Origin: Dehalococcoidia bacterium
GTDB lineage: Bacteria > Chloroflexota > Dehalococcoidia > Lucifugimonadales > VXLM01
Direction of reading: 5' to 3'
DNA: 64,000 bases
NCBI GenBank assembly: GCA_034421575.1
Contig: DAOUKG010000032.1
Location: forward strand, 6,873-70,872
Shown here one piece after another: positions 12,601-27,770 of the stretch. The notes under the pieces are model-generated. The model worked only from the letters and a program-made list of their open reading frames with translations. It was not told the origin of the DNA and did not search any database. Within the stretch, counting starts at the first letter, position 1. Each line of letters begins with the position of its first letter. The position numbers and the translations under genes were made by a program.

Positions 12601-14040
12601 GGCGCGAAGCGGCCCGGCCGGTCGTGACATTCCACCATTGTCTACGAGAGGCTTGGCTGAATCGGGATAGCCTTCGACAATCACGTGGGCGTTCGTCCCC
12701 GACCAGCCGTAGGCACTTATGCCAGCGCGCGGAGGACGGTTCGGATGGAGCGGCCACTGGGTCAATTCCGAGGCTATCTTCACCGACAGCCGGTCCCAGT
12801 CCAGACGAGGGTTCGGATCCCGGAAGTGCAGATGCTTGGGGACCAACCCGTTCTGCAATGACAGCATGACCTTCATCAGACCGGCAACTCCAGCGGCAGG
12901 CTCCAGATGTCCGATGTTCGACTTTACCGAGCCGACCAACAGGGGGCGATCGGTTTCTCTCCCTCTGCCATATACTTCCGCGGCCGCGTTCAACTCGATG
13001 GGATCACCCACTTCCGTGCCCGTGCCGTGTGCCTCCAGGTAGTCCACTTCCGACGGAGCGACTCCAGCCCGCCGCAACGCTTCGGCGATCACGCCAGCCT
13101 GAGCCGGTTCGCTGGGCACCGTCAGCCCGGTGCTCGTCCCGTCCTGGTTGAGCGCAGAGCCTAGTATCACGCCCCAAATTCGGTCGCCGTCAGCCTCAGC
13201 GTCGCTGAGTCTTTTCAACACGACGATCCCGCAGCCCTCGCCTCGGACGAAGCCGTTGGCCGAGGCGTCGAAAGCCTTGCACTTGCCGTCTGGGGACAAC
13301 ATCCGGGCGTTAGCCCGCAGTTCCGTCAGCCGACCGGAGAGAATCGCCTGCACCCCGCCGGCCAAGATTGTATCCGCCTCGCCCCGTTGCAGGGCCGAGA
13401 CGGCCTGGTGCATTGCGACTAGGGAGGAGGAACAGGCGGTGTCCACCGCCATGGCGGGCCCTTCAAATCCCAGGGCGAACGCGACCCGGCCGGCAGCAGT
13501 GTTCAGGGAGGTGCCACTCACGGCGTAGAGGCTCGTGGTAGCCTCGGCGGTCTGGCTGGAATCCAGGTTGATGAGACGGTAGTCCATGTTGCTGATGCCG
13601 ATATAGACCCCGGTGCGGCTGCCCTTAAGCCGTTCCGGGTCTATGCCCGCGTCTTCGAGGGCCTGCCAACTCGTCTCCAACATCAGCCGCTGCTGCGGGT
13701 CCAACAGTTGCGCTTCGACGGGCGATATACGGAAGAACGAAGCGTCAAACAGGTCGATCCCGTCGATGAAGGCCCCGAACCGGCAGGCGTCGCTTTGGAC
13801 TTCGGCGTTGGGGTAAAGCTCGCCGACACGCCCGACACCTGAGCCGGGGACGCCCTCGGTCACTGCGTTCCTGCCCTCGACCAAAAGCTGCCAGAAGGAG
13901 TCCAGATCCGACGCACCCGGGAAGCGGCAGGCCATGCCTACTATCGCTATCGGCTCTCCGGTCTGGGAAACGCTCCGTTCCCCGTCCATGGATAGAGAGG
14001 CTGGTTGATTTGAGGAACTTGCATACGGTGTTTGTGTCAT
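3652..14040 (-). CDS. supA: Type I PKS, SupA-like (KS-AT-DH-cMT-ER-KR-ACP-KS-AT*)
   Basis: KS1 DTACSSS/HGTGT/NIGH; AT GHSLG; DH HQVYGRVVMP; MT LEVGAGTG; ER LIHTASGGVG; KR TGGLGGIG; ACP LGMDSL; KS2 DMACASS; degenerate AT2. Domain order matches the sponge-symbiont SupA PKS. Start taken at ATG 14040 (the ORF extends to 14124). Confidence 0.88.
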   Translation of the reverse strand: MTQTPYASSSNQPASLSMDGERSVSQTGEPIAIVGMACRFPGASDLDSFWQLLVEGRNAVTEGVPGSGVGRVGELYPNAEVQSDACRFGAFIDGIDLFDASFFRISPVEAQLLDPQQRLMLETSWQALEDAGIDPERLKGSRTGVYIGISNMDYRLINLDSSQTAEATTSLYAVSGTSLNTAAGRVAFALGFEGPAMAVDTACSSSLVAMHQAVSALQRGEADTILAGGVQAILSGRLTELRANARMLSPDGKCKAFDASANGFVRGEGCGIVVLKRLSDAEADGDRIWGVILGSALNQDGTSTGLTVPSEPAQAGVIAEALRRAGVAPSEVDYLEAHGTGTEVGDPIELNAAAEVYGRGRETDRPLLVGSVKSNIGHLEPAAGVAGLMKVMLSLQNGLVPKHLHFRDPNPRLDWDRLSVKIASELTQWPLHPNRPPRAGISAYGWSGTNAHVIVEGYPDSAKPLVDNGGMSRPAGPLRAVPSTLTGSEEEPPSENVDARPARLLPLSGKSDAALRDAASSYLSWLDEQSGPAFASGSANDADLSDMAWTAGVARSHFENRNAVLFRDAPSLRDGLKQIADSTGEPSAQRASKVAFAFTGQGNQWLGMGELLYRTEPVFRAVLDRCDRLIQKERGASLLDVMFGRASAAGDLDEPRWTQPAIYALECALTALWDSVGIRPDVVLGHSLGEIAAAYSSGVLTLEDGLRFASARGRIMGDLPSDGAMAAIFAPEYEVSQAVNDWNDAHPCADLCIGVDNGTHQVVSGPQEAVHALSDQLESAGLNVRRLRPSPAYHSALVEPGLDEMEAAIATLSVSEPAIPLVSNLTGQPVETRMDGAYWRQHARQPVAFRSCVESLAQLGVDAVIEIGPHAILGPLVSLNWPQGVGNVVSPVVLQSLLRPSFDGSEPERADAFVQAVADAYVAGLPVDFAGLFAGEERRRISVPGYPFQRQRHWVTASQRRRSGDAHALLGVRHESPHGDVMYETEMYPTDPSWLNDHQVYGRVVMPGAVYGAMAATVQLMEGGDASVVEELQLHNPLVYPAYSPDGDREAPGRRLQVVIGGSKDGAARTFEVFSKGEDGEDWLLHAEGRLSPDAAQPAIGKRIDLDTLKADLTPQDLSAYYRAKTTSGIEFGPSFRTLEALWGEGGEAVGEVALQGAGDTGDLDIHPLLIDGCFQVFSATRNLSGIGGDATYLPFGWERLWLSGPLPDRLVCHARLRETVQAQGENEATAQTPETLTGDLMLYTPEGDVIGGLTGFTVKRATRAALLSASEGLDDLLYEVVWRERPLVGTLQSAQALVGPRAAGEGMRTFEDYLSSEGVTIDDRAMLLSDLERLSRSYSLAALEQLGWQRRKGQPVEPDSLRDLLQIEPQHTKLVGRMLRLLKDGGLLTEATEQGGYIVEVGTGDPLPDDALADPEIFADKMVERYPHGHNELNILRRSGAALADGLRGTVDPLDILFRSEGPGVTEYYFVAPASRASNRLLADAVARVVRDWTGERRLRVLEVGAGTGSATSVVLPELPAECDYVFTDISAGFFAEAEDRFSGSEIPIEYRPLDIERDPSNQGFESHAYDLIIAANVLHATRDLGETLTHCRELLAPSGQLMALENMRGRGWQDITFGLLDGWWRFADDYRPSHAMAHPSIWCRALLDSGYDEVGFLGTEGADEGGPFGSSVILAQGPAEIAQSPGSWVISSDSGGTGLLLARELESRNQSVVLAEPSRPSETPVSEVNIVRRAVSAGSRESWQDLLKELPKDIPLQGVLHLNALDGHGPQASTAQLLEDAKSAGSTALALVQGILDADVAPEKGLWFITLGAQALERDYMGENVGELAGATLWGFGRAVAREAGYLRPQLLDLDPANPARIAHLADELTHPDQETQVAYRDGNRLAARLIRSGSSRVRLELPEESAWRLMPGAEGALEGLHAEPVQDQPLAPGQVRVAVDAVGLNFLDVLLSMGVVNSADPKLGEEFSGRIVEAAPDVTDFAVGDRVVGLAFGTFGPEVVTRADLVAAAPGGISASALATIPSAFVSAGLSFEMADLKAGDRVLIHTASGGVGLAAVQLAQAAGLEVFATASSPKQAYLRSLGIEHVFDSRTAEFGQDILEATNGAGVNMVLNSLTGPGFIEAGLSCLADGGSFVEMGRRDIWTAEEMAASRPDVSYSILELDWLKLNEPTVPGAVLRDVMKKISAGSLKPLAHTRWPIAEAGAAMDFMRSARHIGKNVLALPPMAGGRLRPDRTYLVTGGLGGIGTVVAEWLADHGAGVIVLNGRRSPDPEAVEVIEALRQRGVDVRVELADATQPAEIDAMLARMDAEMPPLAGVIHSVGVLSDGSLGNQTWERFEQVLWPKVLGAWQLHKATLDQDLDLFVLFSSITGVLGNSGQGNHAAANTYLDQLAAYRRSLGLPGQSIAWGAWSGLGEAEEQRERIERQLAASGTGWIAPEQGLQAFDQLVRQDLTAGMVAVVDWPVFAENFEEKNPFLDELVTEDSETDESADVDDADLLSQLRQRPATDWASLLSSFLQGEIQAVLRLQSAPAASVGFFDLGMDSLMAVELRNRLNRALSGEYVVSNTAVFDYPDITALATHLAEELGQLGEVDDAPSSPASPEPLTPEPGVSTRTDEDAIAVVGMACRFPGANDLAEYWKLLEAGADAITEGRRDDGSWSGAVGDPDAEEVINRRGAFVDGIDWFDSRFFRISPIEARLMDPQQRMLLETSWQALEDAGVAPDSLRGSRTGVYAGVGTSEYRDLLQSHSLAHGFLGTTGSVAVGRIAFALGLEGPALPVDMACASSLASVHQAAVSLQTGEVDLALAGGVNVVLSPSTSAFMLEIGMLSPTGYCRPFDASANGYVRGEGCGMVVLKRLSEAESDGDRIYAVIRGSAVNQNGASAGLTVPNGPAQERVMTDALAQAGVSPSDVDYLEAHATGSQLGDPIELNAASSVYGKGRDEDRPLLVGTVKSNIGHLEWAAGIAAFIKAVLSMNKGVIPPHLHYQDPNPNVEWDRMPVRIMSDKTAWPTNSGRLPLAGVNAFGLSGTNAHVLLEGYGATPGDLVDPNGTRLPTGAPQPIPMSLPEQTDAVSISDEAPTERTVRLLPLSGKSEGALRESVKRYLSWLDGEEGSESDAMLSDMAWTASVGRSHFAHRTGLVFSDAEQLRQKLRALADTDEASDGETPREAGRVAFAFTGYERTWAGMGEALYRSEPVVRTVLDRCDDLVRQERGTSLLDVMFGRPGIEHDLNDPAWAEPAIYALQCALTAQWASIGIRPSAAVAQGSGRIAAAQAAGVFSLDEGLRLAVALGELKETQTEFDSQAASESLQTTLDGVTFAVPSLPFVNTPTGQMVESLDALGIDYWLGEDQVPTLLSGHVETLAQLGVDVVVGIGPDSTMERIIGDTWPDSSEVPVILSPLENPPNDGESPESDEGFVRAVAQAYEAGLDISFTGLFAGEFRRRISIPSYPFQRRRHWL

Positions 14041-14587
14041 ATGGCATTTGTCCCTGAGGTTGGGTTTATCGAAGAGGAATCCGCTATCAGCATTATGACA
14101 AGCGGCAAGCGATTGGGAAAGCACTCCCGACCGGCGGGCCTGTGGTAATGGGGATATCGCAGATGGCCTTAGCGGTTCCCCGGCTCATGGGCGTATCTGT
14201 GGAGCACTACCTGCAAGTTGCGTGGACAGCGCCCTCAATGGAATGGGAGGTACTCATGGTTCGTCTTTGCAACTACAGGGTCCGCATAGGTGGACGTGCC
14301 GAGTCCATGGGTTCATCACGGTAAAGAGGTTTTATCCTGGCGCTGCGGAAAGTGGCTGCCTCCAGAGCATCTCATCTCGCAGCGCTGGACAGGAAGCACT
14401 TCCCTCAGACAATTCACGGAAGAGTTCGAGTCCCCGCAGGTCTTAGATACAAATGAGTGGGCCAAGGCGTACCGATTTACGAACTTTTCGGTGGGATGTT
14501 CGTATATAGCCCAAGTGGGGAAAACAGCAGGAACAAGACCGTCAAGAATCCCACGAAGATCAGGAACATTACGGAGTACCTGTTGGT

Positions 14588-15553: not shown

Positions 15554-16630
15554 CTATGCGGGTGGGGACGAGAGCAGGGCAATCGTCTCTTCGGCGGCAG
15601 AGATGCCGCTGGACAGCGCCCCGTTGACCAGGGGAACTCGCGTGTAATCGCCCGCCAGGAAGAGATTGGGCAGGTCCTGTGCGAGGTCGCGACGGGCGTT
15701 TGCCACCGACCTGAACATCCCGGGCGGCCCCTTACACACCGCTATCTTCCATCGGTAGACGCGAGTGAACAGTCCCTCGTCGTCCCCCGGAAGGGCCGAA
15801 CCGGGCGGCGGGTTCCGGCGAATGTCCCGCAGCAACTCGCGCTTGACCTCCTCATCATCCAGTTCCAGCAATTGCTTTGCGCGCTCGCGCCCCGCGATCA
15901 GGTCCAACGTGCTCTTCCCCGGTGGCACGCAGTCCGGCAGGTTGATGGACCGGTCCAGAATGAGGGGAGTCTCGTCTTCCGGGTAGATCGCGCCGTGCCA
16001 GCCGGGAGGCAGCGGTGGATGGGCCAGTCCCATCACCAACCGGCACGCGGAGGAGTAGGTGACGTTGCTCAGGGTCTCACGGACCCTCTGTGGAAGTCCG
16101 GGAATGATCTCCAGCGCTACCGGAGCGGGGACCGCGCAGATGACCGCGTCGGCCTCGATGGTCTCGCCGTCGATCACCACGCCCGTCACGCCCCGCTCCC
16201 CGACCAGTACCTTCCTCACGGGCGTCGAAACGCGGGTGACGTCTGCGCACGCATCGCGCAGGGCGCGGGCAAGTGCGCCCGCCCCTTTCTCCGGCTGCAT
16301 GAGCTTGTGCGGTCGCAGAAACGTGTTGGCCAAGTACCCCCTGATGTACGCCTGGCTGGAGAAAGCGACATAGTCCAGCACGCCATTCTCAACGAACCCG
16401 CTGAGGGTGACACGGAGGGACTCGGACGCGCCCGTCCTCTCCAGGTACTCGCCGAAGGTCTCGTCTCCGTCGATCTCGGCCATGCGGCTGTTGCTGGCGA
16501 ACGTCAGGTAGTCGGCTTGGCGAAAAACCTTATAGATCAGCTTCATCGCCCCCCAGGACAGCAGTCCCAGGTTCGCAAACGCGCTCAGGTTGCTGACCAT
16601 GCCGGGAATGGACGGAGCAGCCGTGGTGAC
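15554..16630 (-). pseudogene. FAD-dependent oxidoreductase (amine oxidase/protoporphyrinogen oxidase-like), N-terminally truncated
   Basis: ADAVICAVPAP, LFLAGDY and NGALSSG are present. The N-terminal GxGxxG dinucleotide motif is absent; upstream sequence is occupied by the divergent 16656 gene. Confidence 0.75.
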
Positions 16631-16655
16631 ACGTGCGCTCAACCATCGGAGCCAA

Positions 16656-19600
16656 ATGTCAGATGACGCCTGCTCCGAGCTTGACTTGATTCTCAACAAC
16701 GAAGTCGCCATCCCGCAGTTCCCTAGGTACCCTGCAAGGGCGCCGCTGCCAATCCTAAGGCAGGCCATCCTTCGAGATATCCATCACTCCGAGTCTCTCC
16801 TAATCGCGGTCCTCAAGACTTGGTTCGTCTCACAGCTTGAGCTACGTGGCTTGATAGTAGAACATCTTCGCAAAACAGATACGTCCATCAATTATCCAAA
16901 TTTTGAGGCGTATCAACTTGACGGCTACTGGCCATTTGATGATTGGTCTTCTTTGTGCGAAGAGATCGTGGAAGCGAACGGAAGTTTAGATCGGAACGAA
17001 GTGGCTCTGATGCTCTGCTGCGTGACAGGTAAACTGCCTATGTCGCTCGCTGCTGGGGCAGTTGCTGAGAGTAGAACGATGAAATCCGACCGTCTTCAAC
17101 AGACCTTAACCTACCTTAAGGCACTGCCTGCTAATGACCCACAATGGGAAGGGGATGTCCCTACGTTCCTATCGTCCATTGTCGAGCTGTCTGAAGAAAA
17201 AGCGGCCGAGCGTGCGAACGCTGTGTCGCTGGAAGAGTTGATCACGACAATCTCTGAATTCAGAGAACAGCATTGCCAACAACTAGAGTACTTTGAGTTT
17301 GATATCTCTGACTGGACAGAGCCAACACATTTCAACGCATCGGTCTTGGCAGAGGTTCATGGTCTTCTAGGAAGGTTGTCAAGTTGCTTCGATGAACACA
17401 GCTCGATCCCTCAACAAGGATCGTCCGTCCGTGAGACTAGACGCCTTAATCGAGAGAGGGAGGGAGTCGAAGATCGCATCATCGGCGTCAAGTCAGAATT
17501 GGATCAACTGCTGACAGTTGACGGTGGGCCAGATGAACCACCTCAGAAGCCAACTCCAGATGGGGCCAGTCCTCCACCAGATATTCAATCGGAAGTTTCG
17601 GACGCGAATGCTGACGCAACCTTGTCCGATTTGCAGTTGTCAGAAAGGAGCTTCGAATTCGATCCAATAGAAGCCAACCACACTGTTGTCCTACCGAACC
17701 ACGCCGACAGCCTAGTCATAGCACCGGTCCCAAGTGTCCCCACGGCGACCGTTGACGTTTCTGTGGAATCGCGGGAGCATGGTGAAATCAGTTGCGTTCA
17801 GGATGACAGTGGAAAACATAGGGTTGAGAATATCGGCGTAGGTCAAACCACTGTGTCGATAACTGTAATGGCCGAGGATGGTGCAACTACTCAAACCTAC
17901 ATCTTGTCAGTTGAGCGTGTTCCAAGTGATGACGCCACTCTCAGGAGGTTGGAGTCGACGGCGGGAGAGTTGGAGTTCGACTGGGCACTTCGGGAATACA
18001 ACATCGACGTTGCCAACGGAGACAAGGAACTGTCAGTGGCATTCGAGACTAACCATAGCTCAGCCACGGTTGAGGCAACTCTCGAACGGCCTGATGATAC
18101 GACTACAGACCTGATCGCGTCCGAGAACGGAGTATGCGAGGTTCCAGGACTGGGAGGCGGACAATCTACTCTGTCTCTTGAGGTAACTGCTGAAGATGGT
18201 GTTACCACTCACACGTACAGGCTAACTCTGAACACTCGCCTCCGCCCGACTTCAGATCACGCTGCGTTAATGTGGTCTCTGGTAGCTGACGATGATCTTG
18301 CCGGAGCTTACTGGATATCGAAGAGCCTCGCTAATCAGGGGCTGATAGCGGCTCACCTGCCCACGCTACTCAAAGCGGTCCAGGTCGCTAGGTGGCTTTC
18401 GCCTGAATCGAGGGATTTCGTCGAAGACCTATTCGCAACCGTATCGCAAACCGACGACTCCTTCGGCGACGATGCTTACGTCATGCTTGGCCTAGCCGCT
18501 TCTATTCAACCATCTATCATCGCGCCTGAAACTAATCTTCTGGCCTGGCTAGTTTCTCCCAGCCGCTTCCCCTCACTTGGAATGCTCGTGTCGTCAGTCA
18601 GAGACTTTGCAAATCGGGGCTACGCACTCGGGCCCGAGCACATTCGAGGCGACGAATGGCATCGTCATCTTCAGAACCTGATCGGCGAAGCCAGTTCTGA
18701 CGCCCACACATGGTTGGGGGATTCCAATAAGCGTTTTCACAACCTCGTGAGGGCAAACAATGTCTGGAGACGCCTTTGCACCGATGGGGGGATGCTTAAC
18801 AATTTGCTAAGCAGAGTAGCAGAGGACCATCGTTCAGAGGTCGCACGAGTGCAGAGCGATGTGGAGGCTCTGGGTGAAGAAGCCTTTCGGCTCGAACTCA
18901 TAAACGAAACCGACAGGTCGCTCCATTCCAATGCTAAGAGCGACATCACAGGTGCTGCCAGAGACTGGCTTCATCGGGGAATCATTCAGGCCACCGAGCT
19001 AGCCTCGCGCTGGTGTGACTTAGTGGACCGAGAGAACGAGTCTCGTACACAGTCGCAGAACCAGTGGTTGTCGGATCATGTTGCTAAGTTGCGCACAGAC
19101 ATTACATCCGTATTTCAGGATGTATTCAATGAACTCTCCAGAGCCACCTCTGATTCATCACAGAGCGATCTTGCCGCTTCATCCCTTTGCGTAGCACGCT
19201 CAATACACTTGTTGCTAGACTACCTGAGTATCAACCACAACGCCGATCACCTATCACCGGTTTCACCTGTTGTCGCCAACCTACACAAGGTAGTTCAGAA
19301 TTCGGACTTCGCAGGACTTGGCATTGCCCCCGGTTCTCATATTGAAACGGCTCTTTCTAGGCGCTTGTTGTGGATACCTACCGTGGATCTCGGAGACGAT
19401 GGTCTGCCGGTGAATGCCAAAGAACCTATCGACCTCCAGAGAGCGGAGGTTGACTGGTTCTCAATTGACACTCCGCTTGAACTAGTTGTGAGGACTCGAA
19501 TCAGCAATGGCGATTTTCGATTTCTCGGCTTATTGTCGTTCGATCCAGAAACAGGCCAACCCGTCAAACCGGAAGCGACGTACGTCACTGATCTCGCGGC

Positions 19601-20162
19601 GGCCAGAGAGACCTTGGAAGAGCATCTAAACCGCGCACGCGAGACCGTCGATCAGGCTGTGAGTGATGGCGTCATAGAATTTGAGGGAGACCGTTGGAGC
19701 AAGTCGACATATTCGCTTGAAGATATTGATGAGAACATTGCGGTTGACAAGATACGCAATTTCAGGGAGGCCCACGATATCCTCGAGGAGATTGAGGTGT
19801 CCATCAAGGATGATCGCGTCAATCGGCGTGAAGAACTTTCTAGAGACTGGGGAACGCTGGTTGGGGCCGTGGGAGAAAATCCCAACGTAGCCGTGGAAGT
19901 TCTTGAAGATCTATCTACCACGTTCAAGTTAGCCAGTCGCGATGACTCTCTAGACATCCGCGTTATGGAGGACTGTGTCAGCAGGATCAGGAATTTCCAG
20001 TCTGGCGATCCTCAAGACCTTGTTCCGACTCCCTCGGAGGGTCCCTCCAGAACCCTAGAAGATTTTTTGCGCTTCTCTTCTGGCATTGGAGAACTTTCAC
20101 CACATGAAAGACGCAGTAACGAACTGAGACACATGCTGTTGCGATCCAAGGGGGAGGAATAG
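16656..20162 (+). CDS. Large mostly alpha-helical protein (~1168 aa) with two internal cadherin-like beta-sandwich domains
   Basis: GGAG RBS before ATG 16656. A Pro-rich linker precedes two repeats, ADATLSDLQLS...VTVMAEDGATTQTYILSVER and DDATLRRLES...EVTAEDGVTTHTYRLTL. No signal peptide. Lower GC than the flanks. Confidence 0.8.
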   Translation: MSDDACSELDLILNNEVAIPQFPRYPARAPLPILRQAILRDIHHSESLLIAVLKTWFVSQLELRGLIVEHLRKTDTSINYPNFEAYQLDGYWPFDDWSSLCEEIVEANGSLDRNEVALMLCCVTGKLPMSLAAGAVAESRTMKSDRLQQTLTYLKALPANDPQWEGDVPTFLSSIVELSEEKAAERANAVSLEELITTISEFREQHCQQLEYFEFDISDWTEPTHFNASVLAEVHGLLGRLSSCFDEHSSIPQQGSSVRETRRLNREREGVEDRIIGVKSELDQLLTVDGGPDEPPQKPTPDGASPPPDIQSEVSDANADATLSDLQLSERSFEFDPIEANHTVVLPNHADSLVIAPVPSVPTATVDVSVESREHGEISCVQDDSGKHRVENIGVGQTTVSITVMAEDGATTQTYILSVERVPSDDATLRRLESTAGELEFDWALREYNIDVANGDKELSVAFETNHSSATVEATLERPDDTTTDLIASENGVCEVPGLGGGQSTLSLEVTAEDGVTTHTYRLTLNTRLRPTSDHAALMWSLVADDDLAGAYWISKSLANQGLIAAHLPTLLKAVQVARWLSPESRDFVEDLFATVSQTDDSFGDDAYVMLGLAASIQPSIIAPETNLLAWLVSPSRFPSLGMLVSSVRDFANRGYALGPEHIRGDEWHRHLQNLIGEASSDAHTWLGDSNKRFHNLVRANNVWRRLCTDGGMLNNLLSRVAEDHRSEVARVQSDVEALGEEAFRLELINETDRSLHSNAKSDITGAARDWLHRGIIQATELASRWCDLVDRENESRTQSQNQWLSDHVAKLRTDITSVFQDVFNELSRATSDSSQSDLAASSLCVARSIHLLLDYLSINHNADHLSPVSPVVANLHKVVQNSDFAGLGIAPGSHIETALSRRLLWIPTVDLGDDGLPVNAKEPIDLQRAEVDWFSIDTPLELVVRTRISNGDFRFLGLLSFDPETGQPVKPEATYVTDLAAARETLEEHLNRARETVDQAVSDGVIEFEGDRWSKSTYSLEDIDENIAVDKIRNFREAHDILEEIEVSIKDDRVNRREELSRDWGTLVGAVGENPNVAVEVLEDLSTTFKLASRDDSLDIRVMEDCVSRIRNFQSGDPQDLVPTPSEGPSRTLEDFLRFSSGIGELSPHERRSNELRHMLLRSKGEE

Positions 20163-20169
20163 GTTCGTC

Positions 20170-21930
20170 ATGTCGAGTTCACCATCAACCCGTGATTTAG
20201 AAACGGAAAAGTTGGTAGACGATTGGGAGCTTCTAAAGCAGGAACGGCCTCGTGACCGGACCGGCCCAACATCCAAGGGTCGAATCGGCACAGTGCTTAG
20301 CTTCCTTGGCCTACGCTATCAGAACGAAAGTGAACTCACGCTCCGGAAAGAAGACCGGTCAGGAAGACGATGGGTCTACTTTACGTTTGAGACCGACCCA
20401 CAAGGCAGCAACGCCGTTCGTGGGGCTCCTCAGTTTGGCTCTCAGGCCAATGGCACCTATCACATCTTCTGTCTTTGGGAGGATGCCAGGCCAGATCGGA
20501 TCTTTCGCAACACAAGCATCGACAAGGCGGCAAGGGGCAATCAGGGCGCGGTCGTTGTTCTCTATCTCAGTGCTCTGACCGAACCCGAACGTCATGACGT
20601 ACGCCGGGAGTCTTGGGCGAACGACCTTACTGTCCTGATAGTTGACGAAGTGCTGTTGACATACCTTGCCCGTTGTGAGGGTGATAGATTCAGGCCCTTT
20701 CTCGAAGTCTCCCTTCCGTTTACAGCAGCCAACCCTTACAACCCGGAAACGGCTGGTTGGGGCTCGAGGGTGGCTCCGGAAATGTTCTATGGTCGTGAGC
20801 AGCTGGAACGTGAGATTGTCTCGCGAGGTGGCACCTCACTGATTTTTGGAGGTAGACAGCTCGGTAAGACGGCCTTGCTCAGACATGTGGAGGAAGGGTT
20901 CTCCGACCCCGACCTACGACGATTCGCATGGTTCATTGATCTGAAGGCAGCAGGCTATGTGCCCGATGCTGAGTCCGCAAAAGACCCTAGTGATATTCTT
21001 GAGGTGCTTCACGACAGCTTTAGACAAGATGACATCCTGGGAGCCGATACGAGCGGTCATAGTCAGGAACAGATGCGTCAGGACATTCTTGACGCCTTCG
21101 AGAACGACAGAGACCTTCAGGTTCTGGCCATGTTCGACGAGTCGGATGCATTTCTTCAACGTGACTGGTCTTCTGGCTCTCCGGTGGTGGAGTCGCTCCG
21201 AGCACTCATGGACGACACTGGCAACAGGTTCAAGGTTGTCTTCGCCGGGCTCCACAACGTACAGCGTTTCGCCAACCGGCCCAACAGTCCGTTCCCCAAT
21301 TTGGGCTTCAACTCCAACACTCCTCGGAGAGGGGGGATCGGGCCCTTAAGGGACCACGAGGCAAGAAACCTCGTAGAGCAACCATTCAGTCTGTTGGGCT
21401 TTAGATTCGAACCCCTCGCAGTTGACAAAATTCTTAGCTATACCAACAGGCATCCTTCATTGATCCAGTTTTTCTGTCATGAGCTTATACAGTCATACAG
21501 GCAGAGCAATCCGGACGGGAGCCCACCATTCACAATTGGAATAGATGAGGTCGACAGGGTGTATCGAACTCAGAGCATACAGGGAGGTATCAAACGGCGA
21601 TTCAAGGCGACCTTCGAACTGGACCCCCGCTACCATGTGATCGCCTTAGCAATGATCCTGGATCAAGAACATCCAACGCAGAGCTGGGGTTTGGACAAGT
21701 TGAGGTCGCACTGCCAGTCCTACTGTCCACTCACGTTCGAGCCGGATAGCCTCAGCAACCTCGAGTTAGCGTCGCTCTTGAACGAATTGATTGGACTGGG
21801 CGTTCTCGCTCAGGATGGAGATTCCTACCGAATGAGAAGTTCACTCATCGCACAAATGTTTGGAAGCGAGGATGAAGTAATTGAAATGCTTGGCGAACTT
21901 GAGGCTGAGGAGCCGTATTCGGTAAGTTGA
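20170..21930 (+). CDS. STAND-class P-loop ATPase with C-terminal winged helix
   Basis: NPY..PEMFYGRE, Walker A GGRQLGKT, Walker B VLAMFDESD, VVFAG sensor, YTNRHPSLIQ (GxP-equivalent), and a wH-like end (LNELIGLGVL). Confidence 0.85.
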   Translation: MSSSPSTRDLETEKLVDDWELLKQERPRDRTGPTSKGRIGTVLSFLGLRYQNESELTLRKEDRSGRRWVYFTFETDPQGSNAVRGAPQFGSQANGTYHIFCLWEDARPDRIFRNTSIDKAARGNQGAVVVLYLSALTEPERHDVRRESWANDLTVLIVDEVLLTYLARCEGDRFRPFLEVSLPFTAANPYNPETAGWGSRVAPEMFYGREQLEREIVSRGGTSLIFGGRQLGKTALLRHVEEGFSDPDLRRFAWFIDLKAAGYVPDAESAKDPSDILEVLHDSFRQDDILGADTSGHSQEQMRQDILDAFENDRDLQVLAMFDESDAFLQRDWSSGSPVVESLRALMDDTGNRFKVVFAGLHNVQRFANRPNSPFPNLGFNSNTPRRGGIGPLRDHEARNLVEQPFSLLGFRFEPLAVDKILSYTNRHPSLIQFFCHELIQSYRQSNPDGSPPFTIGIDEVDRVYRTQSIQGGIKRRFKATFELDPRYHVIALAMILDQEHPTQSWGLDKLRSHCQSYCPLTFEPDSLSNLELASLLNELIGLGVLAQDGDSYRMRSSLIAQMFGSEDEVIEMLGELEAEEPYSVS

Positions 21931-23199
21931 ATGAATCTCGAGCCACTCGCCTACTCCCTCCCTTCCACACAGTCCTTTGTTCACTCCATTACTGACAACG
22001 ACGACAACGGTGTAAAGGTCGTCTTGCTTCCAGACAATCTAAGCCGCGAAATGGTGGGACGGCTAGTCAGAAATCGATTAGCCGCCCTCAAACTCACTGT
22101 TAGTAGACTCTTCGATCCCGGAGGGGCCAGCCCGGTTTCGGCTAGCGCCAAGGCCATGAATGCCATCTGGCCATCGCCCCGTACGCTCAGAACCGTCCAC
22201 AACCTGCTGTGCTGCACGGATCTCCCCGATATCTTGTACGTTCACCGAATCGGAGCAAGACAAGAGTGGACCGGATTCATCGAGAGTTGGGCGCGGGAAT
22301 ATCGCATACTGAGGAACTCAGGGAACACTGACATTCCGTCCTTGTGCGTGATTGCCAAGTTGAAAGATTTCGAGTTCATCCTGCCAGAGTCCAAATCAGA
22401 CCTCACATTCCATTGGTGGTGGGGCTTTCCATCAATGCTGGAGGTAAGACTCTCATGTAGGATAGCGAGCGAGCAGTTCGATAGAGATGATCCAGCCACC
22501 TCCAGTTGGAGGGAATACGTGCTTCCTGGCCTTGTCGGCAGTGACATACAGCTCGCCGAGCATATGTGGAGCAGGGTCATGGATAGCACCGATCAAACCA
22601 TGAGGGGTCTGTCGGAATACTGGGACCGCCTTGAAAATACAGCGCTCAGCGACTCGATTGATGACGTAATAGAAATCGTCAGGGCCAACCGGGGAACGTA
22701 CGGTGCAGGGCAGGAGCCACCTCTGCATCTGCGCAGACTCTGGGCCAGTGGTGGGCTAATCTACACGCGGGAGTACGGACTTGAGGTTCATCCCGCTTTG
22801 CTGGCTCATCGTGAACTCTGGACTAGTGTTGAACACATGCTATGGCGCGGCCAGTCCGAACTGCTTCTTCCGATAGTTAACGAGATTCGCCTTAGGGTAT
22901 GTCAGGACTTGACTGAAACGTACGGTAGTGACTGGCCAGTCAAATGGGTACCTCCTCACTTTGAGCATGATATCGAGGAGGTCAGCCGCTCTCCTCTAGG
23001 CACTGAACTAAGTCACGTCAGCTACCTCATTCAGAATCTGGGCATGTACAACCATCGCCACGACTTGTATCAGAAGCGATTTCTCGGAGAACTGGTTCTA
23101 ATGGCGAAGACCTTGAGGAATGAAATCGCCCATTACAAGCCTGTCTCATATCAGGACTTTGCAGGACTGTGTGATGAGCGGAACAGGGTGGGGATATAG
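21931..23199 (+). CDS. Hypothetical protein with a C-terminal HEPN-like RxxxxH motif
   Basis: Starts immediately after the ATPase stop; C-terminal LRNEIAHYKPV. HEPN assignment is inferred from the motif and its helical context only. Confidence 0.6.
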   Translation: MNLEPLAYSLPSTQSFVHSITDNDDNGVKVVLLPDNLSREMVGRLVRNRLAALKLTVSRLFDPGGASPVSASAKAMNAIWPSPRTLRTVHNLLCCTDLPDILYVHRIGARQEWTGFIESWAREYRILRNSGNTDIPSLCVIAKLKDFEFILPESKSDLTFHWWWGFPSMLEVRLSCRIASEQFDRDDPATSSWREYVLPGLVGSDIQLAEHMWSRVMDSTDQTMRGLSEYWDRLENTALSDSIDDVIEIVRANRGTYGAGQEPPLHLRRLWASGGLIYTREYGLEVHPALLAHRELWTSVEHMLWRGQSELLLPIVNEIRLRVCQDLTETYGSDWPVKWVPPHFEHDIEEVSRSPLGTELSHVSYLIQNLGMYNHRHDLYQKRFLGELVLMAKTLRNEIAHYKPVSYQDFAGLCDERNRVGI

Positions 23200-23258
23200 T
23201 GAACCGCCGGCATTGTGTTTCCACTTGACGAGGGGTAGGCGCAAGAATAGAGCGACGA

Positions 23259-23531
23259 CTATCGTTTGACGGCCTCCGCGTCTCCCACCACAGGTAGCAG
23301 GATATGTAGCAGGCCCAACTCGGCGGCGAGGTTAAACAGGGAAATGAGATGGCCCGGGTCCGGCTTAGTTCCCTTCTTCCACCGCCATACGCATCGAACG
23401 TTCACGCGCAGGCGGCGGGCAAGCCCCCGCCACGACAGCCCGGCGGCTTCACGGAGTCGCTCCAGCCGCTCAGGGAAGTCTGGAGGGAATCGGGAAGGTT
23501 CCACGTGATAGACGTTCTGTTGACGGCGCAC
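23259..23531 (-). CDS. Small XRE-type HTH protein
   Basis: FPPDFPERLERLREAAGLSWRGLARRLRVNVRCVWRW; GTG start with an upstream GGGAG. Confidence 0.7.
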   Translation of the reverse strand: MRRQQNVYHVEPSRFPPDFPERLERLREAAGLSWRGLARRLRVNVRCVWRWKKGTKPDPGHLISLFNLAAELGLLHILLPVVGDAEAVKR

Positions 23532-23538
23532 CAAGTCG

Positions 23539-23829
23539 CTACTCCCCCCTCCGGGATACAACTATCAGGTCGTCGTCCAACAGGACGCCCAGACCTCCCG
23601 GCACCCTTGTCGCCAGCGCCACTATCGCCAGCATAGCACCGCCGTTGGGCCATCCGCCATCGCGCCAGTACTTCAACTGACGGGGGTCTACTCCCAGACA
23701 GACTGACATCCCCTCCCAGGTCATTCCGGTGATTTCCTTGAGCGCGGTGAGCCTGTCGGAGAAGTCCTCAGGCAGCAGAGACCCGTCGGGCACAAACAGA
23801 TGGGGCAGCAGATGGCGTTCTCTACTCAT
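23539..23829 (-). CDS. Small XRE-type HTH protein (paralog of 23259-23531)
   Basis: LPEDFSDRLTALKEITGMTWEGMSVCLGVDPRQLKYWRDG. Confidence 0.7.
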   Translation of the reverse strand: MSRERHLLPHLFVPDGSLLPEDFSDRLTALKEITGMTWEGMSVCLGVDPRQLKYWRDGGWPNGGAMLAIVALATRVPGGLGVLLDDDLIVVSRRGE

Positions 23830-24064
23830 CGCAGACCATCACGACGAAAAGGTCGTCGAACTCGGAGCACTCCAGAGATTCCATGAGCCGCCGCCTAATC
23901 GACGGCGAAGGGCATCTCCTGCCGTTGATGAGGCGGGAGAGGTGTCCCGAAGAGACTTCGAGCAGATGAGCGAGGTCGTTCTGGGTCATGTTGAGCCGGT
24001 TGAGGCGGTCCCAAACCGCCTCGGCCTTCAGTTGCACCTTCCTAGCGGGGCGCTTACCTGCCAC
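23822..24064 (-). CDS. Cro/XRE-like HTH protein
   Basis: MTQNDLAHLLEVSSGHLSRLINGRRCPS; GTG at 24064 with a GGAGG RBS; overlaps its neighbours. Confidence 0.8.
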   Translation of the reverse strand: MAGKRPARKVQLKAEAVWDRLNRLNMTQNDLAHLLEVSSGHLSRLINGRRCPSPSIRRRLMESLECSEFDDLFVVMVCDE

Positions 24065-24263
24065 GCCTGCCCTCCTTTGCCGGGATTTCGCCACCATCGG
24101 CGGCCAAAGCGGATGCGGAGTCATCCCCCGCAGCGTCCTGCTCGATGAGGGACCGGAAATGAGCGCGAACGATCATGCGGGCCAGGATTTTCAAGCCCTG
24201 CAGACGCATCGCGTTCTGCTCTTTGGTGAGACGAGTGTCTCTGCTCAGGTCTCTTGAATTCAT
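24054..24263 (-). CDS. Small hypothetical protein (first gene of the leftward operon)
   Basis: ATG at 24263; amphipathic helix RLQGLKILARMIVRAHF; its stop overlaps the next start. Confidence 0.45.
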   Translation of the reverse strand: MNSRDLSRDTRLTKEQNAMRLQGLKILARMIVRAHFRSLIEQDAAGDDSASALAADGGEIPAKEGRRGR

Positions 24264-24497
24264 GCGTTGCACCCCGGTGGCGCAGTAGTGATCTTTGGTG
24301 TATGATAAGCGGAACAGTACGTGTGTTCTGTAATATGGCAGTCTAACAGTAGCGCACACCAATGGGCAATAGCAATCGGTGAGTAATATGGGATCATTGA
24401 TAAATTGCTTCCTGTAATGTAACAAGTGTTGACCAACTATTGACCTTTTGAAGGTAGGAGCGTCAATGTGACACCGGAGTCTAACGGGGAGGCAGCT
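24264..24497. promoter_or_regulatory. Divergent promoter/operator region of a phage-like genetic switch
   Basis: AT-rich intergenic region between the leftward cro-like operon and the rightward repressor; TTGACC hexamers are present. Exact sites were not defined. Confidence 0.45.
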
Positions 24498-24902
24498 ATG
24501 AACGAGGAGACAGACCGCCGAGACGAGACCATCGGCCAGATGCTCAGACGGCTGCGGGGCGACATGAGCCTGCGGGGAGTCCAGCGCATCAGCGGCATCT
24601 CGAACGCCTACCTCTCACAGATCGAGAAAGACCTTCGTCATCCGGGACCCAAGGTTCTCAAGAGACTGGCTGCGCTCTACGGTGTCGGTGTCCAGGACCT
24701 GTTCAAGAAGGCCGGATACCTGGAGGAGGGAGAGGAGCCGGAGGTAGACGAGACCGCTGAGGTGGAGAGGGCCTACCAGTACGTCCTGGCCGATCCCGTG
24801 TTTCGCGTTGGAACCAGACCCAGAGGTCCCCTTTCCATCGAGTCGAAGCGTTTCATCGTCGAGCTGTACGAGCGCTACAGCGGGAAGAGGCTGCTCTCGT
24901 GA
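24498..24902 (+). CDS. XRE-family repressor (ImmR/DdrO-like)
   Basis: IGQMLRRLRGDMSLRGVQRISGISNAYLSQIEK...AGYL; GGAGG RBS before ATG 24498. Confidence 0.85.
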   Translation: MNEETDRRDETIGQMLRRLRGDMSLRGVQRISGISNAYLSQIEKDLRHPGPKVLKRLAALYGVGVQDLFKKAGYLEEGEEPEVDETAEVERAYQYVLADPVFRVGTRPRGPLSIESKRFIVELYERYSGKRLLS

Positions 24903-25846
24903 GCGCCGTCACGCTGGACGATTTCTGCCGCCACCTCGTGGACGGTGAACCTCCCAACGAGAGACTCCATCCAACGGGCGTGGCTCGGGAGTTCGTGGGA
25001 TTCTTCGGCCTATCGCCCTTTCCACACATGGACGAGACCGAGTCGCTGCTCAACAGAGCCGTCATCGCTACCGTAGTTCGATCTCATGACATGGCAGGGT
25101 TAAGGGGATATCACACGGGAACGAACATCGGCAGCTATCAGATCGTAATCGACGCGACTGATGGCATCGTGGCCCAGGAGCACACGGTGCTCCACGAGAC
25201 TTACGAGATCATCAAAGAAAGGCTCGGAGACCTCTATACGGATATCGGAGTCCCGCAGGGCAAGAGCATGTGCCGTCAGGCCGACCGGTTCGCCGCTGCG
25301 GTGCTGATGCAGCCCTACTGGTTCTCCCTGTTCGCCACGTCGTCAGGGTTGGACATTATCGCCCTGCAAAAGGCATACGGCCGCGCCTATTCGTCGGTGA
25401 TCTTGAGGCTGGCCGAGGTGATGCGGGATCAGCCGCTCATTGCGGTCCTGTACGAGCGCGGAGAGGCAAGGGAGCCCTACTTTCGGACGACGGCTCCCGT
25501 TGCGCACTTCAGGGCTACGGTCGTAGCCCGCACTCCCGGATTCGGGGCGCGCCACAGCCGCGCGTTGTGCGGAACGAAGGGAGGAATGCCGCGATGGGGA
25601 AGGCCCCTTCCTCCCGGCTCGCTTGCCGAGGGCGTGGCGCTGACGGGCAAGCCGAGCTACGTCGAGAAAGAGCCGGGGTTTGGCGATGTGGCCGTCGCCG
25701 CAAGACCGGTATTCCGGCGGGGACGTTTGAAAAGGATCGTCGTAGTTGCCGTGCCCTATAACGACTGTGCCGTTTTGCTGCGCCAGACCGCAGACCCATC
25801 TTTCGAGTCCGCGCGTCGCCTAGCTGTGGCGGCCGGTCCCTGGTAG
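24899..25846 (+). CDS. ImmA/IrrE-like metallopeptidase (variant zinc motif)
   Basis: HTVLHETYE and QADRFAAAVLM motifs, an HTH-like middle region and a GAF-like C-terminus; GTGA overlap with the repressor. Confidence 0.75.
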   Translation: MSAVTLDDFCRHLVDGEPPNERLHPTGVAREFVGFFGLSPFPHMDETESLLNRAVIATVVRSHDMAGLRGYHTGTNIGSYQIVIDATDGIVAQEHTVLHETYEIIKERLGDLYTDIGVPQGKSMCRQADRFAAAVLMQPYWFSLFATSSGLDIIALQKAYGRAYSSVILRLAEVMRDQPLIAVLYERGEAREPYFRTTAPVAHFRATVVARTPGFGARHSRALCGTKGGMPRWGRPLPPGSLAEGVALTGKPSYVEKEPGFGDVAVAARPVFRRGRLKRIVVVAVPYNDCAVLLRQTADPSFESARRLAVAAGPW

Positions 25847-25914
25847 TTGCAGGTAGATTGCTAGGTGAGTTATAGTAAGACAATGTCATACTACGGAAGG
25901 CAAAAAGAGAGACG

Positions 25915-26145
25915 ATGCCAGCAATCCCGAGGAACACCAAGACCATCACCTTCTCCCTGCCGCCTGAGATGGCGGAGCAGGTGCATGAAGTGATGCGGGA
26001 AGAGGGCCGGACGATGAGCGAACTGATCCGAGAGGCTCTACGCAACTACATGGAGGAGCGGGAATGGCTCAGGGATATCCGGTCCCAGAGGCTCAGAGAA
26101 CGTGAGAAAGAACGGGAAGACGTCAGAAGGAGGACTGAAAAGTGA
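25915..26145 (+). CDS. Ribbon-helix-helix (CopG-like) protein
   Basis: KTITFSLPPEMAEQVHEVMREEGRTMSELIREALRNY. Confidence 0.85.
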   Translation: MPAIPRNTKTITFSLPPEMAEQVHEVMREEGRTMSELIREALRNYMEEREWLRDIRSQRLREREKEREDVRRRTEK

Positions 26146-27770
26146 TCGATAAGCAACCTAAAGACTACACACCGGCAGCCCTCTACGCCAGAGTTTCCAG
26201 CGACCGTCAGGATGTTGACCTGTCCGTCGCCGCACAGTTGAGGGCGCTCCGGGAGCACGCCGAAAAGAACGGTTACATGGTTGTGCGCGAGTATGTCGAC
26301 GAGGCCGAAAGCGGACGCATCGCCGACAGGCCCCAGTTCCGCAAGATGCTGGACGAAGCCTCAAAAGCCAGTGCCCCCTTCCAGGAGATTCTCGTCTGGA
26401 AATTCTCCCGCTTCACGCGGAAGCGGGAGCACGCCGTCGCTTTCAAGTCCATGCTTCGAAGACGCGGTATTCGAGTGACATCGATCACTGAGCACGCCGA
26501 CGACTCGCCCACAGGCAAGCTCATGGAAGCCATCATCGAGAGCGTGGACGAGTTCTATAGCGAGAACTTGGCCCAAGAGGTCACGCGGGGGTTGCGTGAG
26601 GCCGCCTCTCGTGGCTTCTGGATGGGCACCAACGCCCCATTTGGCTACAAGAAAGTCTACGTCCAAGACGGAGCCAAGAAGCGCCCGAAGCTGGAGCCGA
26701 ACCCGCCAGAAGATGCAGTGGTCAAGCGCATGTTCGACATGGCCCTGCAGGGCATGAGTTCACTCGACATCGCCAGGAACCTCAACGCCGAAGGCATCGC
26801 CAGTCCCAAAGGGAAGCAGTGGCTCAAGAGTACCGTCCACACAACTATCAACAACGAAGCATACACAGGCACCGTAGTCTGGGGAGTCAATGCCAAGGAC
26901 GGCGCTCCGCCGGTACGCGTCGAGAAGGCGTTCCCCGCCATCGTCTCCAAGCGCAAGTTCCAGCAGGTCGCCAACCTGCTGAAATCTCGCGCACCTAAGA
27001 GCGTACATCCCCGCCGGGCGTCCAGCCCTTACCTGCTCAGCGGACTGGCAAAGTGCGAGACATGCGGCAAGGCCCTCACTGCAGCCGAGGCCAAAAGCGG
27101 CAAGTACACCTACTACGTCTGCCACTCCCTGCTCAAGAAGGGTAAGGGAACGTGCAGGACTCCCAGGCTCAACTCGAAGAACTTTGAGGGCCTGATCGTC
27201 TCCAACATCCGCGACAATATCCTCACTGAGAGCAACATCCGCGACCTTGTGAAGATAGTGGACGGGGAGATGGACGGGGTTGCCCGCGAGCAGCGCAAGA
27301 GACTGAAGGTAATCGAAGAGGAGCTTGAGGACGTGAAGAAACGGCTGGACAAAATCTGGCACGCCATCGAGACGACCGATATCGAGATGTCCCAAGCCTC
27401 GGACCGCATCAAAGAGAACTGGGAGCGCAAGGAGAAGCTGGAAACCTCGGCTGAGGAGGCGCGGGCGGCTCTGTCGAAGCGGAGAGTTACGCTGGACAGG
27501 ATGGCGAAGATCACGGACTTCGCACAGGAAATGAGGGAGTATCTAAAGAAAAGCGACCTAACCCAGTCGAGGGCGTTCATACGGTCGTTCGTCAAGGAGG
27601 TTTCGGTCAGGCCCGGCAAGGCCACGATCCACTACACAATGCTCACTCCGGAGGATAGTCCCACATTAGGCGGCGACACCGCAGAGGTCATCCTGAACGG
27701 AGGAGTTATGAATATGGGAGTCTCAAGTGGGGAAGGAGGGACTCGAACCCTCACGCCTTGCGGCACATGA
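26142..27770 (+). CDS. Large serine recombinase (integrase)
   Basis: Catalytic ALYARVSS, RPQF..ML, recombinase domain PFGY, zinc ribbon CETCG..YYVC..C, coiled coil. The last ~14 codons lie antisense within tRNA-Leu. Confidence 0.95.
   Translation: MIDKQPKDYTPAALYARVSSDRQDVDLSVAAQLRALREHAEKNGYMVVREYVDEAESGRIADRPQFRKMLDEASKASAPFQEILVWKFSRFTRKREHAVAFKSMLRRRGIRVTSITEHADDSPTGKLMEAIIESVDEFYSENLAQEVTRGLREAASRGFWMGTNAPFGYKKVYVQDGAKKRPKLEPNPPEDAVVKRMFDMALQGMSSLDIARNLNAEGIASPKGKQWLKSTVHTTINNEAYTGTVVWGVNAKDGAPPVRVEKAFPAIVSKRKFQQVANLLKSRAPKSVHPRRASSPYLLSGLAKCETCGKALTAAEAKSGKYTYYVCHSLLKKGKGTCRTPRLNSKNFEGLIVSNIRDNILTESNIRDLVKIVDGEMDGVAREQRKRLKVIEEELEDVKKRLDKIWHAIETTDIEMSQASDRIKENWERKEKLETSAEEARAALSKRRVTLDRMAKITDFAQEMREYLKKSDLTQSRAFIRSFVKEVSVRPGKATIHYTMLTPEDSPTLGGDTAEVILNGGVMNMGVSSGEGGTRTLTPCGT

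Follow-up and report, generated by a model that had tools for sequence, protein, structure and literature searches.

A three-gene cassette encoding a giant protein, an ORC/Cdc6-STAND-type ATPase and a predicted HEPN ribonuclease is a candidate NLR-like conflict system in Dehalococcoidia

The 64,000-nucleotide stretch of a Dehalococcoidia contig that we investigated (DAOUKG010000032.1; hereafter the window) contains three packed genes on its forward strand, which we call g1, g2 and g3 (Table 1). We consider it reasonably probable that they form a two-component conflict system resembling the nucleotide-binding leucine-rich repeat receptors (NLRs), most likely one for anti-phage abortive infection, which is here laid out as three genes. 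This reading draws on the linkage of the genes, the invariant Walker A, Walker B and Rx4H motifs, the anomalous guanine plus cytosine (GC) content, the shifting flanks, the mobile and defense genes in the neighborhood, and purifying selection. We further infer a defense function, a sensor role for g1, an interaction between g2 and g3, ribonuclease (RNase) activity, and the activation of this RNase through dimerization.

The three-gene array is confirmed to be real and not a product of chance, because about 200 homologues of g2 and 160 of g3 were recovered, and 444 loci harbor a g2 relative. The open reading frames (ORFs) of 1168, 586 and 422 codons are separated by 7 nt (g1/g2) and 0 nt (g2/g3); the TGA of g2 abuts the ATG of g3, and a GGAGG is found upstream of the ATG of g2. 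Over 16621-23206 the GC content is 0.527, compared with 0.619 in the left and 0.609 in the right flank, and in all 15 cassette loci measured the cassette was lower in GC than its flanks, by 3-13 points. The original prediction, made from the letters of the window alone, had described three packed, co-oriented genes of lower GC, and the layout and the composition are both borne out. In blastn comparisons, two related loci, L081 (91.5% identity) and L082 (84.4%), match the window from 16621/16626 to 23206/23207, with identical cassette ends and with flanks that are unrelated to those of the window (labels L001-L093 denote genome stretches with cassette relatives; P numbers denote protein homologues). 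The relatives share only the stretch 16621-23206 and differ in their flanks, which indicates that the three-gene cassette is a transferable unit. The trio had also been placed inside a tRNA-linked island. A tRNA-Leu(TAG) gene does lie 4.5 kb downstream, but the sequence shared with the closest relative stops at 23206, and the cassette is only a possible member of the tRNA-linked mobile-element module.

The three genes are very strongly linked, and g1 and g2 are mostly fused. Our scan with one genome per species returned the 444 loci with a g2 relative, and the best 80 of these were mapped with hidden Markov models (HMMs). Most of the 80 loci have g1 and g2 joined in a single ORF of 1,700-2,400 aa. 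A g3 homologue lies directly downstream, often overlapping, in 57 of them; eight further loci carry divergent g3 copies in this place (four with a C-terminal R[NH]xLAH), which brings the total with a g3 homologue directly after g1-g2 to about 65 of 80. Even close relatives differ in having the fused or the split form (P0247, P0251, L001). Because g1 and g2 make up a single protein ancestrally or in most lineages, the system has basically two components. In the Latescibacterota locus L087 (identical to L012) an insertion sequence (IS) element, consisting of a DDE_3 transposase and a helix-turn-helix (HTH) gene, is inserted between the g1 and g2 parts (8789-9924).

Among 79 homologues scored, 67, nearly all from outside the Dehalococcoidia, possess an extra C-terminal extension of about 315 aa after the winged helix. 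The consensus of this extension (L007 and 66 others) reads GVSLVFGSEAAGL, TLVVVP, LRPW..A..WL and TGGWPVLL, followed by a winged-helix-like end. In hhalign the extension matches g2 weakly but colinearly (E=0.009), and it looks like a second, degenerate NTPase module with its own winged helix. The HMM of the extension found no match in the window.

The best 80 loci come from Dehalococcoidia/SAR202 (the closest, at 63-69% identity), Latescibacterota, Binatia, Entotheonella, cyanobacteria, myxobacteria (Sorangium cellulosum So ce56 and Chondromyces), Acidobacteriota and others. Relatives of g2 are present on 25 plasmids, including actinomycete plasmids; a tblastn search of plasmids with g3 gave no match. 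RefSeq annotates proteins of the family as 'hypothetical protein', 'AAA family ATPase' or 'ATP-binding protein'.

Judged by its motifs and its predicted fold, g2 encodes a genuine P-loop ATPase of the ORC/Cdc6-STAND type (origin recognition complex, ORC; signal transduction ATPases with numerous domains, STAND). The AlphaFold2 (AF2) model, with a predicted local distance difference test (pLDDT) score of 86, comprises an N-terminal alpha/beta domain, an AAA+ core, a lid and a C-terminal winged helix. The motifs GGRQLGKT, VLAMFDESD and YTNRHPSLIQ, which had been pointed out in the original prediction together with the winged helix, are present and conserved. We aligned 17 and 70 homologues: L422 and Q433 are invariant in both alignments, P429 is nearly invariant, and T425 and H428 are invariant among the 17 sequences and nearly so among the 70. 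Also invariant in the alignments are (E)MFYGRE, FGGRQxGK[TS], FDE[SA]D, GLHxVQ, PRRGG, IGPL..EA and T..HP...QFFCH. The segments IGPL..EA..L and T..HPSLIQ stand where the STAND motifs would be expected, with the glycine of GxP replaced. In the N-terminal domain G47, G85, W103, R141 and D159 are invariant. We considered a PD-(D/E)xK nuclease for this domain and rejected it: the alpha-beta-beta-beta-alpha-beta order is similar, but the catalytic residues of the D..(D/E)xK motif are absent.

We call g2 an ORC/Cdc6-STAND-type ATPase because of the Foldseek ranking and of Pfam matches below threshold. The top structural matches are the archaeal Walker ATPases 2qen and 2fna and Orc1/Cdc6 (E=4e-7 to 1e-5), followed by Avs3 (E=1.8e-5) and by NRC2 and CED-4 (E about 1e-4). 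In Pfam, AAA_22 fell just under its threshold (8e-6), and nSTAND1 remained below its gathering score both for g2 of the window (E=0.018) and for a Calothrix homologue (5e-5). The Walker motifs, the lid and the winged helix would suit a STAND, but Orc1/Cdc6, 2qen and 2fna outrank Avs3, NRC2 and CED-4, and g2 is only a possible member of the STAND superfamily in the strict sense. The likeness of its modeled structure to archaeal Walker ATPases and Orc1/Cdc6 is at least as close as that to canonical STANDs.

The protein encoded by g3 was expected to be an effector with a HEPN motif. The motif is there, and the helix topology agrees with it, but g3 also has a degenerate AAA+-like N-terminal half. 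Its AF2 model (pLDDT 91.2) consists of an alpha/beta domain with a lid (aa 1-260), a small winged helix, and an all-helical C-terminal domain. In Foldseek the N-terminal half resembles ORC3/4, replication factor C (RFC), RuvB and the NB-ARC domain of plant NLRs. Both Walker A and the acidic Walker B are missing from the sequence at the AAA+ positions of this half. Since PDNLSR replaces the P-loop, Walker B is lacking, and profile similarity to g2 is absent, this half is best described as a pseudo-ATPase; the same negative hhalign comparison of g3 with g2 indicates that it is not a recognizable paralogue of g2. The degenerate half probably docks g3 to the ATPase.

The C-terminus of g3 has the hallmarks of a HEPN domain, and its assignment as a predicted RNase is supported by motif conservation and by the model. 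Four helices (297-331, 345-371, 378-400 and 407-420) form an up-down bundle, and the ending (L)RNEIAH noted in the original prediction occupies aa 395-401, at the end of the third core helix and before the last helix. Neither R396 nor H401 varies in 110 close homologues or in 114 diverse ones, the latter being representatives of clusters at 50% identity; over these 114 sequences, W305, R320, R396 and H401 are the sole invariant residues. The pattern R[NTD]xx[AS]H is retained in the alignable g3-like ORFs of loci from many phyla. The only recurrent Pfam family is HEPN_Swt1 (PF18731), which matches g3 of the window with E=0.038 (14.7 bits, cut-off 27.5) and is found, always below threshold, in 21 of 62 and 32 of 114 members. 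A Rx4-6H motif in this position corresponds to the definition of HEPN domains in Anantharaman et al. 2013 (PMC3710099). Clustering at 50% identity divides the g3 family into 753 clusters; the members listed are, with few exceptions, separate proteins of about 400-440 aa.

In the original prediction g1 was a giant helical scaffold. This needs correction, as g1 is not simply helical: two cadherin-like beta-sandwich domains (PF12733) occupy aa ~323-530, with a match at aa 323-421 and a second stretch (E=4e-16, 59.6 bits, gathering cut-off 24.2). Crude helix and strand propensities of g1 were uninformative, and we make no claim of helicity. The beta-sandwich region is absent or replaced in distant fused homologues; it is a lineage-specific insert. 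The only part of g1 that is kept across phyla is aa ~540-840, where W540, L542, A551, Y552, P624 and W786 are conserved; conserved residues of a catalytic type were not found in this core among 68 homologous ORFs. Searches of g1 revealed no convincing transmembrane segment, and a sliding-window scan of variability revealed no localized hypervariable segment. The ratio of nonsynonymous to synonymous substitution rates (dN/dS) is 0.22-0.24 for g1, 0.07-0.08 for g2 and 0.10-0.14 for g3; by this measure g1 evolves about three times as fast as g2.

Taken as a conflict system, the cassette could work as follows. The products of g1 and g2 would constitute the sensor and switch, with a lineage-variable N-terminal region, a conserved core, the alpha/beta domain, the ATPase and the winged helix, and g3 would be the effector, in which a hydrolysis-dead AAA+-like module serves as adaptor for one C-terminal HEPN RNase domain. 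At rest, g3 would be monomeric or kept apart, with its single HEPN domain inactive. Recognition of a trigger, e.g., a phage protein or nucleic acid, by the variable region of g1 would license the ATP-dependent oligomerization of g2; STAND and NLR proteins signal through nucleotide-dependent oligomerization. The g3 protein would then join through AAA+-type interfaces, similar to the inactive subunits of ORC and RFC, complexes which join active and inactive AAA+ subunits. Two HEPN domains would thereby meet and form a composite Rx4H site that cleaves cellular or phage RNA, and growth would stop. We postulate the composite site because HEPN RNases such as RNase L, Ire1, Csm6 and Cas13 need two HEPN domains per active site.

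Among known systems, Avs proteins (Avs3, PDB 8dgc) share with the cassette a P-loop NTPase with helical lid and winged helix, a very large non-catalytic region, a nuclease-type effector, and a mobile, patchy distribution, and Avs3 is, together with NRC2 and CED-4, among the structural matches of g2. Avs systems typically have an N-terminal effector, a central STAND module and a C-terminal sensor in a single protein. In contrast, the effector of the cassette is a separate protein with a pseudo-AAA+ module of its own and not an N-terminal fusion, no Avs model of PADLOC matches, and g2 is structurally closest to Orc1/Cdc6 and archaeal Walker ATPases. These proteins (2qby, 1w5t, 2qen, 2fna) have the arrangement of AAA+ core, lid and winged helix in common with g2, and the match of the g3 N-terminal half to ORC3/4 and RFC recalls heteromeric ORC and RFC assemblies. 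However, the cassette has no sequence-level similarity to ORC/Cdc6 and no replication context, g3 has a HEPN domain, and the protein within or after which g2 is located exceeds 1,100 aa and bears no relation to ORC.

A looser analogy may be drawn to RNase L/Ire1, in which a pseudokinase or kinase is joined to a KEN/HEPN domain, and to PrrC, an NTPase with a HEPN-like anticodon nuclease. As may be the case in g3, a regulator with a nucleotide-binding fold precedes a single HEPN-type RNase whose activity depends on dimerization or oligomerization; however, the regulatory fold of g3 is AAA+-like and not a kinase or ABC fold, and there is no sequence relationship. We rejected a HEPN-MNT toxin-antitoxin (TA) pair, as the cassette contains no NTP_transf_2/MNT domain and the conserved partners of g3 are g1-g2. 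The Swt1/Abi2-type HEPN RNases (PF18731; PMC3710099) are similar to g3 in the RNxxAH at the end of core helix 3 and in the four-helix bundle. They differ in that all g3 scores are below the gathering threshold, and in that a degenerate AAA+-like module precedes the HEPN domain of g3, with a separate giant ATPase gene upstream.

The architecture had not been recognized as a named system, and we also found no match in PADLOC, NCBIfam, Pfam, PDB or the literature searched. At E<=1, scans with PADLOC-DB v2.0 and NCBIfam matched none of the three proteins to a family, profile searches of all PDB sequences with g1, g2 and g3 gave only chance-level matches, and literature searches turned up no description of the cassette architecture. 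In Kaur et al. 2020, HEPN occurs in the reference list only. PMC3710099 lists fusions of HEPN to STAND ATPases and to AAA+ ATPases, and its tables, so far as they were available, do not include a pseudo-AAA+-HEPN protein with a separate giant ATPase. According to a 2026 STAND census (PMC13581612), 391 of 589 STAND clades are not classed as defense-associated, and the family described here could be among these 589 clades. The general kind, STAND or AAA+ NTPases coupled to HEPN nucleases, is known from Anantharaman 2013 and from the Avs literature. The features that look new are the trans-acting pseudo-AAA+-HEPN effector, the giant region N-terminal to the NTPase, and an effector that is exchangeable between a HEPN RNase and a protein with phospholipase D (PLD)-nuclease and SNF2 helicase domains (PLD-SNF2).

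The genes surrounding the cassette were annotated with Pfam in nine independent loci. Clear defense genes are found near the cassette in four of them: L082 (HEPN_RiboL-PSP, Mrr-helicase-methylase, Vsr, N6_Mtase), L087 (HsdM/HsdS, Vsr and Dcm, with the type I restriction-modification (RM) genes, Vsr and Dcm immediately past g3), L093 (GmrSD, Eco57I-type RM, PLD-SNF2) and L091 (DEAD-MZB helicase). In L086, L092 and the window, IS, TA or recombinase genes are nearby. We also took a census of the nearest upstream and downstream ORFs in 50 non-syntenic loci (100 neighbors). Pfam matches among these neighbors include ResIII, DEAD, Helicase_C, N6_Mtase, GmrSD_N, PLDc_2, SNF2, BrxL and phage integrase, PADLOC identified two full-length DruE (Druantia) proteins, and IS elements, integrases and recombinases are common beside the cassette.

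Several observations weigh against an anti-phage conflict system. In L081 and L084 the genes nearby are metabolic or housekeeping genes, and the census is small and consists of raw counts without a background rate, which makes the association with defense genes suggestive. Profiles of g2 and g3 retrieved no relatives from the viral contigs of IMG/VR, and none of the three proteins is covered by a PADLOC model. The large region of the cassette, the putative sensor, lies N-terminal to the NTPase, whereas NLR and Avs proteins typically have the opposite order. The HEPN assignment draws on sub-threshold Pfam scores (best E=2e-5), the motif and the predicted topology; a search of PDB sequences with the g3 profile did not retrieve a solved HEPN structure, and the top Foldseek matches listed for g3 cover only its N-terminal half. 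Furthermore, the copy in the window is without the N-terminus of g1 and the native promoter, and so may be silent.

MalT and AfsR-type regulators are signal-sensing STAND-type ATPases, and the cassette might likewise be a non-immune regulatory or stress system in which such an ATPase controls an RNase for dormancy, RNA turnover or development in bacteria with complex lifestyles. Many STAND clades are non-defense (the 391 of PMC13581612), some homologues contain a complete sigma-70 domain that hints at a link to transcription, some loci have housekeeping surroundings, and enrichment of the family is seen in Chloroflexota, Latescibacterota, cyanobacteria and myxobacteria. However, the distribution is patchy, the GC anomaly is consistent, near-identical cassettes have differing flanks, IS elements and RM genes often adjoin, a PLD-SNF2 nuclease-helicase replaces g3 in one subclade, and the cassette proteins of the window have no DNA-binding output domain; we regard a regulatory role as improbable. 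Still less credit should be given to a selfish addiction or inter-element competition module, in which g3 would be a toxin RNase restrained by g1-g2 in the service of the mobile DNA that carries it. The tight, traveling cassette, its recombinase, IS and TA gene neighbors and the copies on plasmids would be expected for such a module, and HEPN proteins are common as toxins (PMC3710099). However, with 6.5 kb and an ATPase partner of 1,750 aa the cassette is far above the size of a typical TA pair, it contains no MNT or small antitoxin gene, and the intact, conserved ATPase motifs favor a regulated switch over a stoichiometric antitoxin. This explanation also overlaps mechanistically with that of a conflict system.

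A different question is whether the copy in the window is still functional, whatever the family does elsewhere. Close homologues of g1 (1199-1240 aa) begin about 32 codons earlier, with a conserved M.SIPPEESLPDP...FTES, whereas in the window the homology starts at ...VVTRAL (~16621 in the alignments); g1 of the window thus is without about 32 N-terminal codons and the native upstream and promoter region. At ~16620 a head-to-head rearrangement junction cuts the 5' ends of both g1 and a divergent flavin amine-oxidase gene, whose match to PF01593 begins only at profile position 182. The same junction recurs in L083, an assembly from a different sample (99.94% identical), which shows that the break is not an assembly artefact. 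A decaying, non-functional remnant would explain these losses and the finding that no promoter-like site lies upstream of the cassette. However, the scan for promoters and terminators, which found fewer sites than in shuffled sequence, used an E. coli-type consensus that may not suit this organism. The frame of g1 is open from a TTG at 16590, and in-frame ATG, GTG and TTG starts are available at 16590-16656, with GTG at 16623 and 16626 as alternatives. Over 6.5 kb none of the three ORFs is interrupted, and comparison with L081 indicates purifying selection (dN/dS 0.08-0.24), although most of this divergence may predate the deletion. We consider it unlikely, though not to be dismissed lightly, that this copy is a remnant.

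A more far-reaching interpretation, which we put forward as rather doubtful, is that the family represents a modular heteromeric 'resistosome' that combines an active ORC/STAND ATPase, dead AAA+ modules and variable N-terminal integrated baits. One or two dead modules would take part, namely the ~315 aa that extend the fused proteins at their C-terminus and the N-terminal half of g3, the latter being a plug-in adaptor that delivers the HEPN RNase. In Dehalococcoidia the cadherin-like beta-sandwiches would serve as bait, and in cyanobacteria a complete sigma-70 would do so, much as plant NLRs carry integrated decoys; phage factors that attack such host targets, e.g., anti-sigma factors, would trip the system. 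The cyanobacterial subclade (L042 5471-12682, L046, L051, L052, L060, the Phormidium plasmid L068, and L072) has g1-g2 fusions of about 2,150-2,400 aa that open with a complete sigma-70 (regions 1.2, 2, 3 and 4). In L042, L046, L051, L060 and L068 the gene downstream encodes a protein of about 1,100 aa without a match to g3, which in L042 has, according to Pfam, PLD-nuclease and SNF2 helicase domains. The PLD-SNF2 helicase in the place of g3 looks like effector swapping, and the sigma-70 fusion may combine an integrated decoy with such a swap.

Sequences at the periphery of the family show further arrangements. In an uncultured member of the Chloroflexi (L024 14459-17494) a protein of about 1,010 aa is encoded just after g3, one region of which shares 30% identity with the sigma-70 of the cyanobacterial fusions. 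In the plasmid pMVF16-3 of Microvirga sp. VF16 (L089 1504-13304) a very distant relative of g2 (24.5% identity) is found inside a 3,394-aa 'RNaseH domain-containing protein', and the next protein is a 538-aa 'AAA family ATPase'. Here the wider family may have yet another architecture.

If the cassette is indeed a conflict system, then a widespread family joins the NLR-like immune repertoire of bacteria. It would offer a tractable case of pseudo-ATPase subunits that couple an ATPase switch to the proximity-driven activation of an RNase, and the sigma-70 fusions would be a possible bacterial integrated decoy. The family may have stayed unnamed in screens centered on E. coli and Bacillus because its hosts are mostly uncultured or hard to grow.

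Table 1. Features of the cassette and its surroundings, in coordinates of the window.
Feature	Position	Strand	Evidence or remark
Whole cassette	16621..23206	+	blastn: stretch common to relatives with unrelated flanks
g1, large accessory or putative sensor-scaffold protein	16656..20162	+	ORF from ATG 16656, 1168 aa
Two cadherin-like beta-sandwich domains, g1 aa ~323-530	17622..18245	+	Pfam PF12733
g1 core conserved across phyla, aa ~540-840	18273..19175	+	HMM coverage/occupancy, 68 homologous ORFs
g2, alpha/beta domain, ORC/Cdc6-STAND-like AAA+ ATPase, helical lid, winged helix (predicted)	20170..21930	+	AF2, Foldseek, Pfam
g2 N-terminal alpha/beta domain, aa 1-195	20170..20754	+	Alignments, AF2 model
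Walker A GGRQLGKT, g2 aa 227-234	20848..20871	+	G227, G228, R229, Q230, G232, K233 invariant
Walker B VLAMFDESD, g2 aa 318-326	21121..21147	+	D323, E324, D326 invariant
YTNRHPSLIQ, g2 aa 424-433	21439..21468	+	At the position of the STAND/Arch-ATPase 'TGGxPxLh' (GxP) motif
g3, degenerate AAA+-like module, lid, small winged helix, HEPN domain (predicted)	21931..23199	+	AF2, Foldseek
g3 pseudo-ATPase module, aa ~1-260	21931..22710	+	PDNLSR at P-loop position
g3 predicted HEPN domain, aa ~295-422, all-helical up-down bundle	22813..23196	+	AF2 model
RNEIAH, predicted Rx4H catalytic motif, g3 aa 396-401	23116..23133	+	End of third core helix, before last helix
5'-truncated flavin amine-oxidase gene abutting cassette	15554..16620	-	Pfam PF01593 from profile position 182 only
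Mobile-element module	23207-27809		Small HTH, XRE, IrrE/M78-like and large serine recombinase genes
AT-rich divergent regulatory region	~24290-24470
XRE regulator	24468-24902
IrrE/M78-like gene	24899-25846
Large serine recombinase	26142-27770		3' end overlaps tRNA-Leu(TAG)
tRNA-Leu(TAG)	27727-27809
Modular polyketide synthase	3652-14124	-	Giant ORF, ~3,490 aa
Two ankyrin-repeat proteins	27993-30646	-	498 and 367 aa
Type II RM pair	49654-52528		Low-GC patch (0.48-0.50)

The surroundings of the cassette in the window deserve a brief description. The mobile-element module that follows it also contains small HTH genes on the minus strand. On the other side of the cassette a giant ORF encodes a modular polyketide synthase; the gene as called in the sister assembly has ketoacyl-synt, Acyl_transf_1, PKS_DH and methyltransferase domains. 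Past the tRNA gene lie two genes for ankyrin-repeat proteins. Genes of this kind typically belong to bacteria associated with eukaryotic hosts, e.g., sponge-associated Chloroflexota, and the closest relatives of the cassette are in Dehalococcoidia/SAR202 and in the metagenome-assembled genome 'Chloroflexi bacterium SB0664'. A second patch of low GC farther downstream is a type II RM pair, which consists of an N6_N4 DNA methylase (676 aa) and a NotI-like restriction endonuclease (289 aa).

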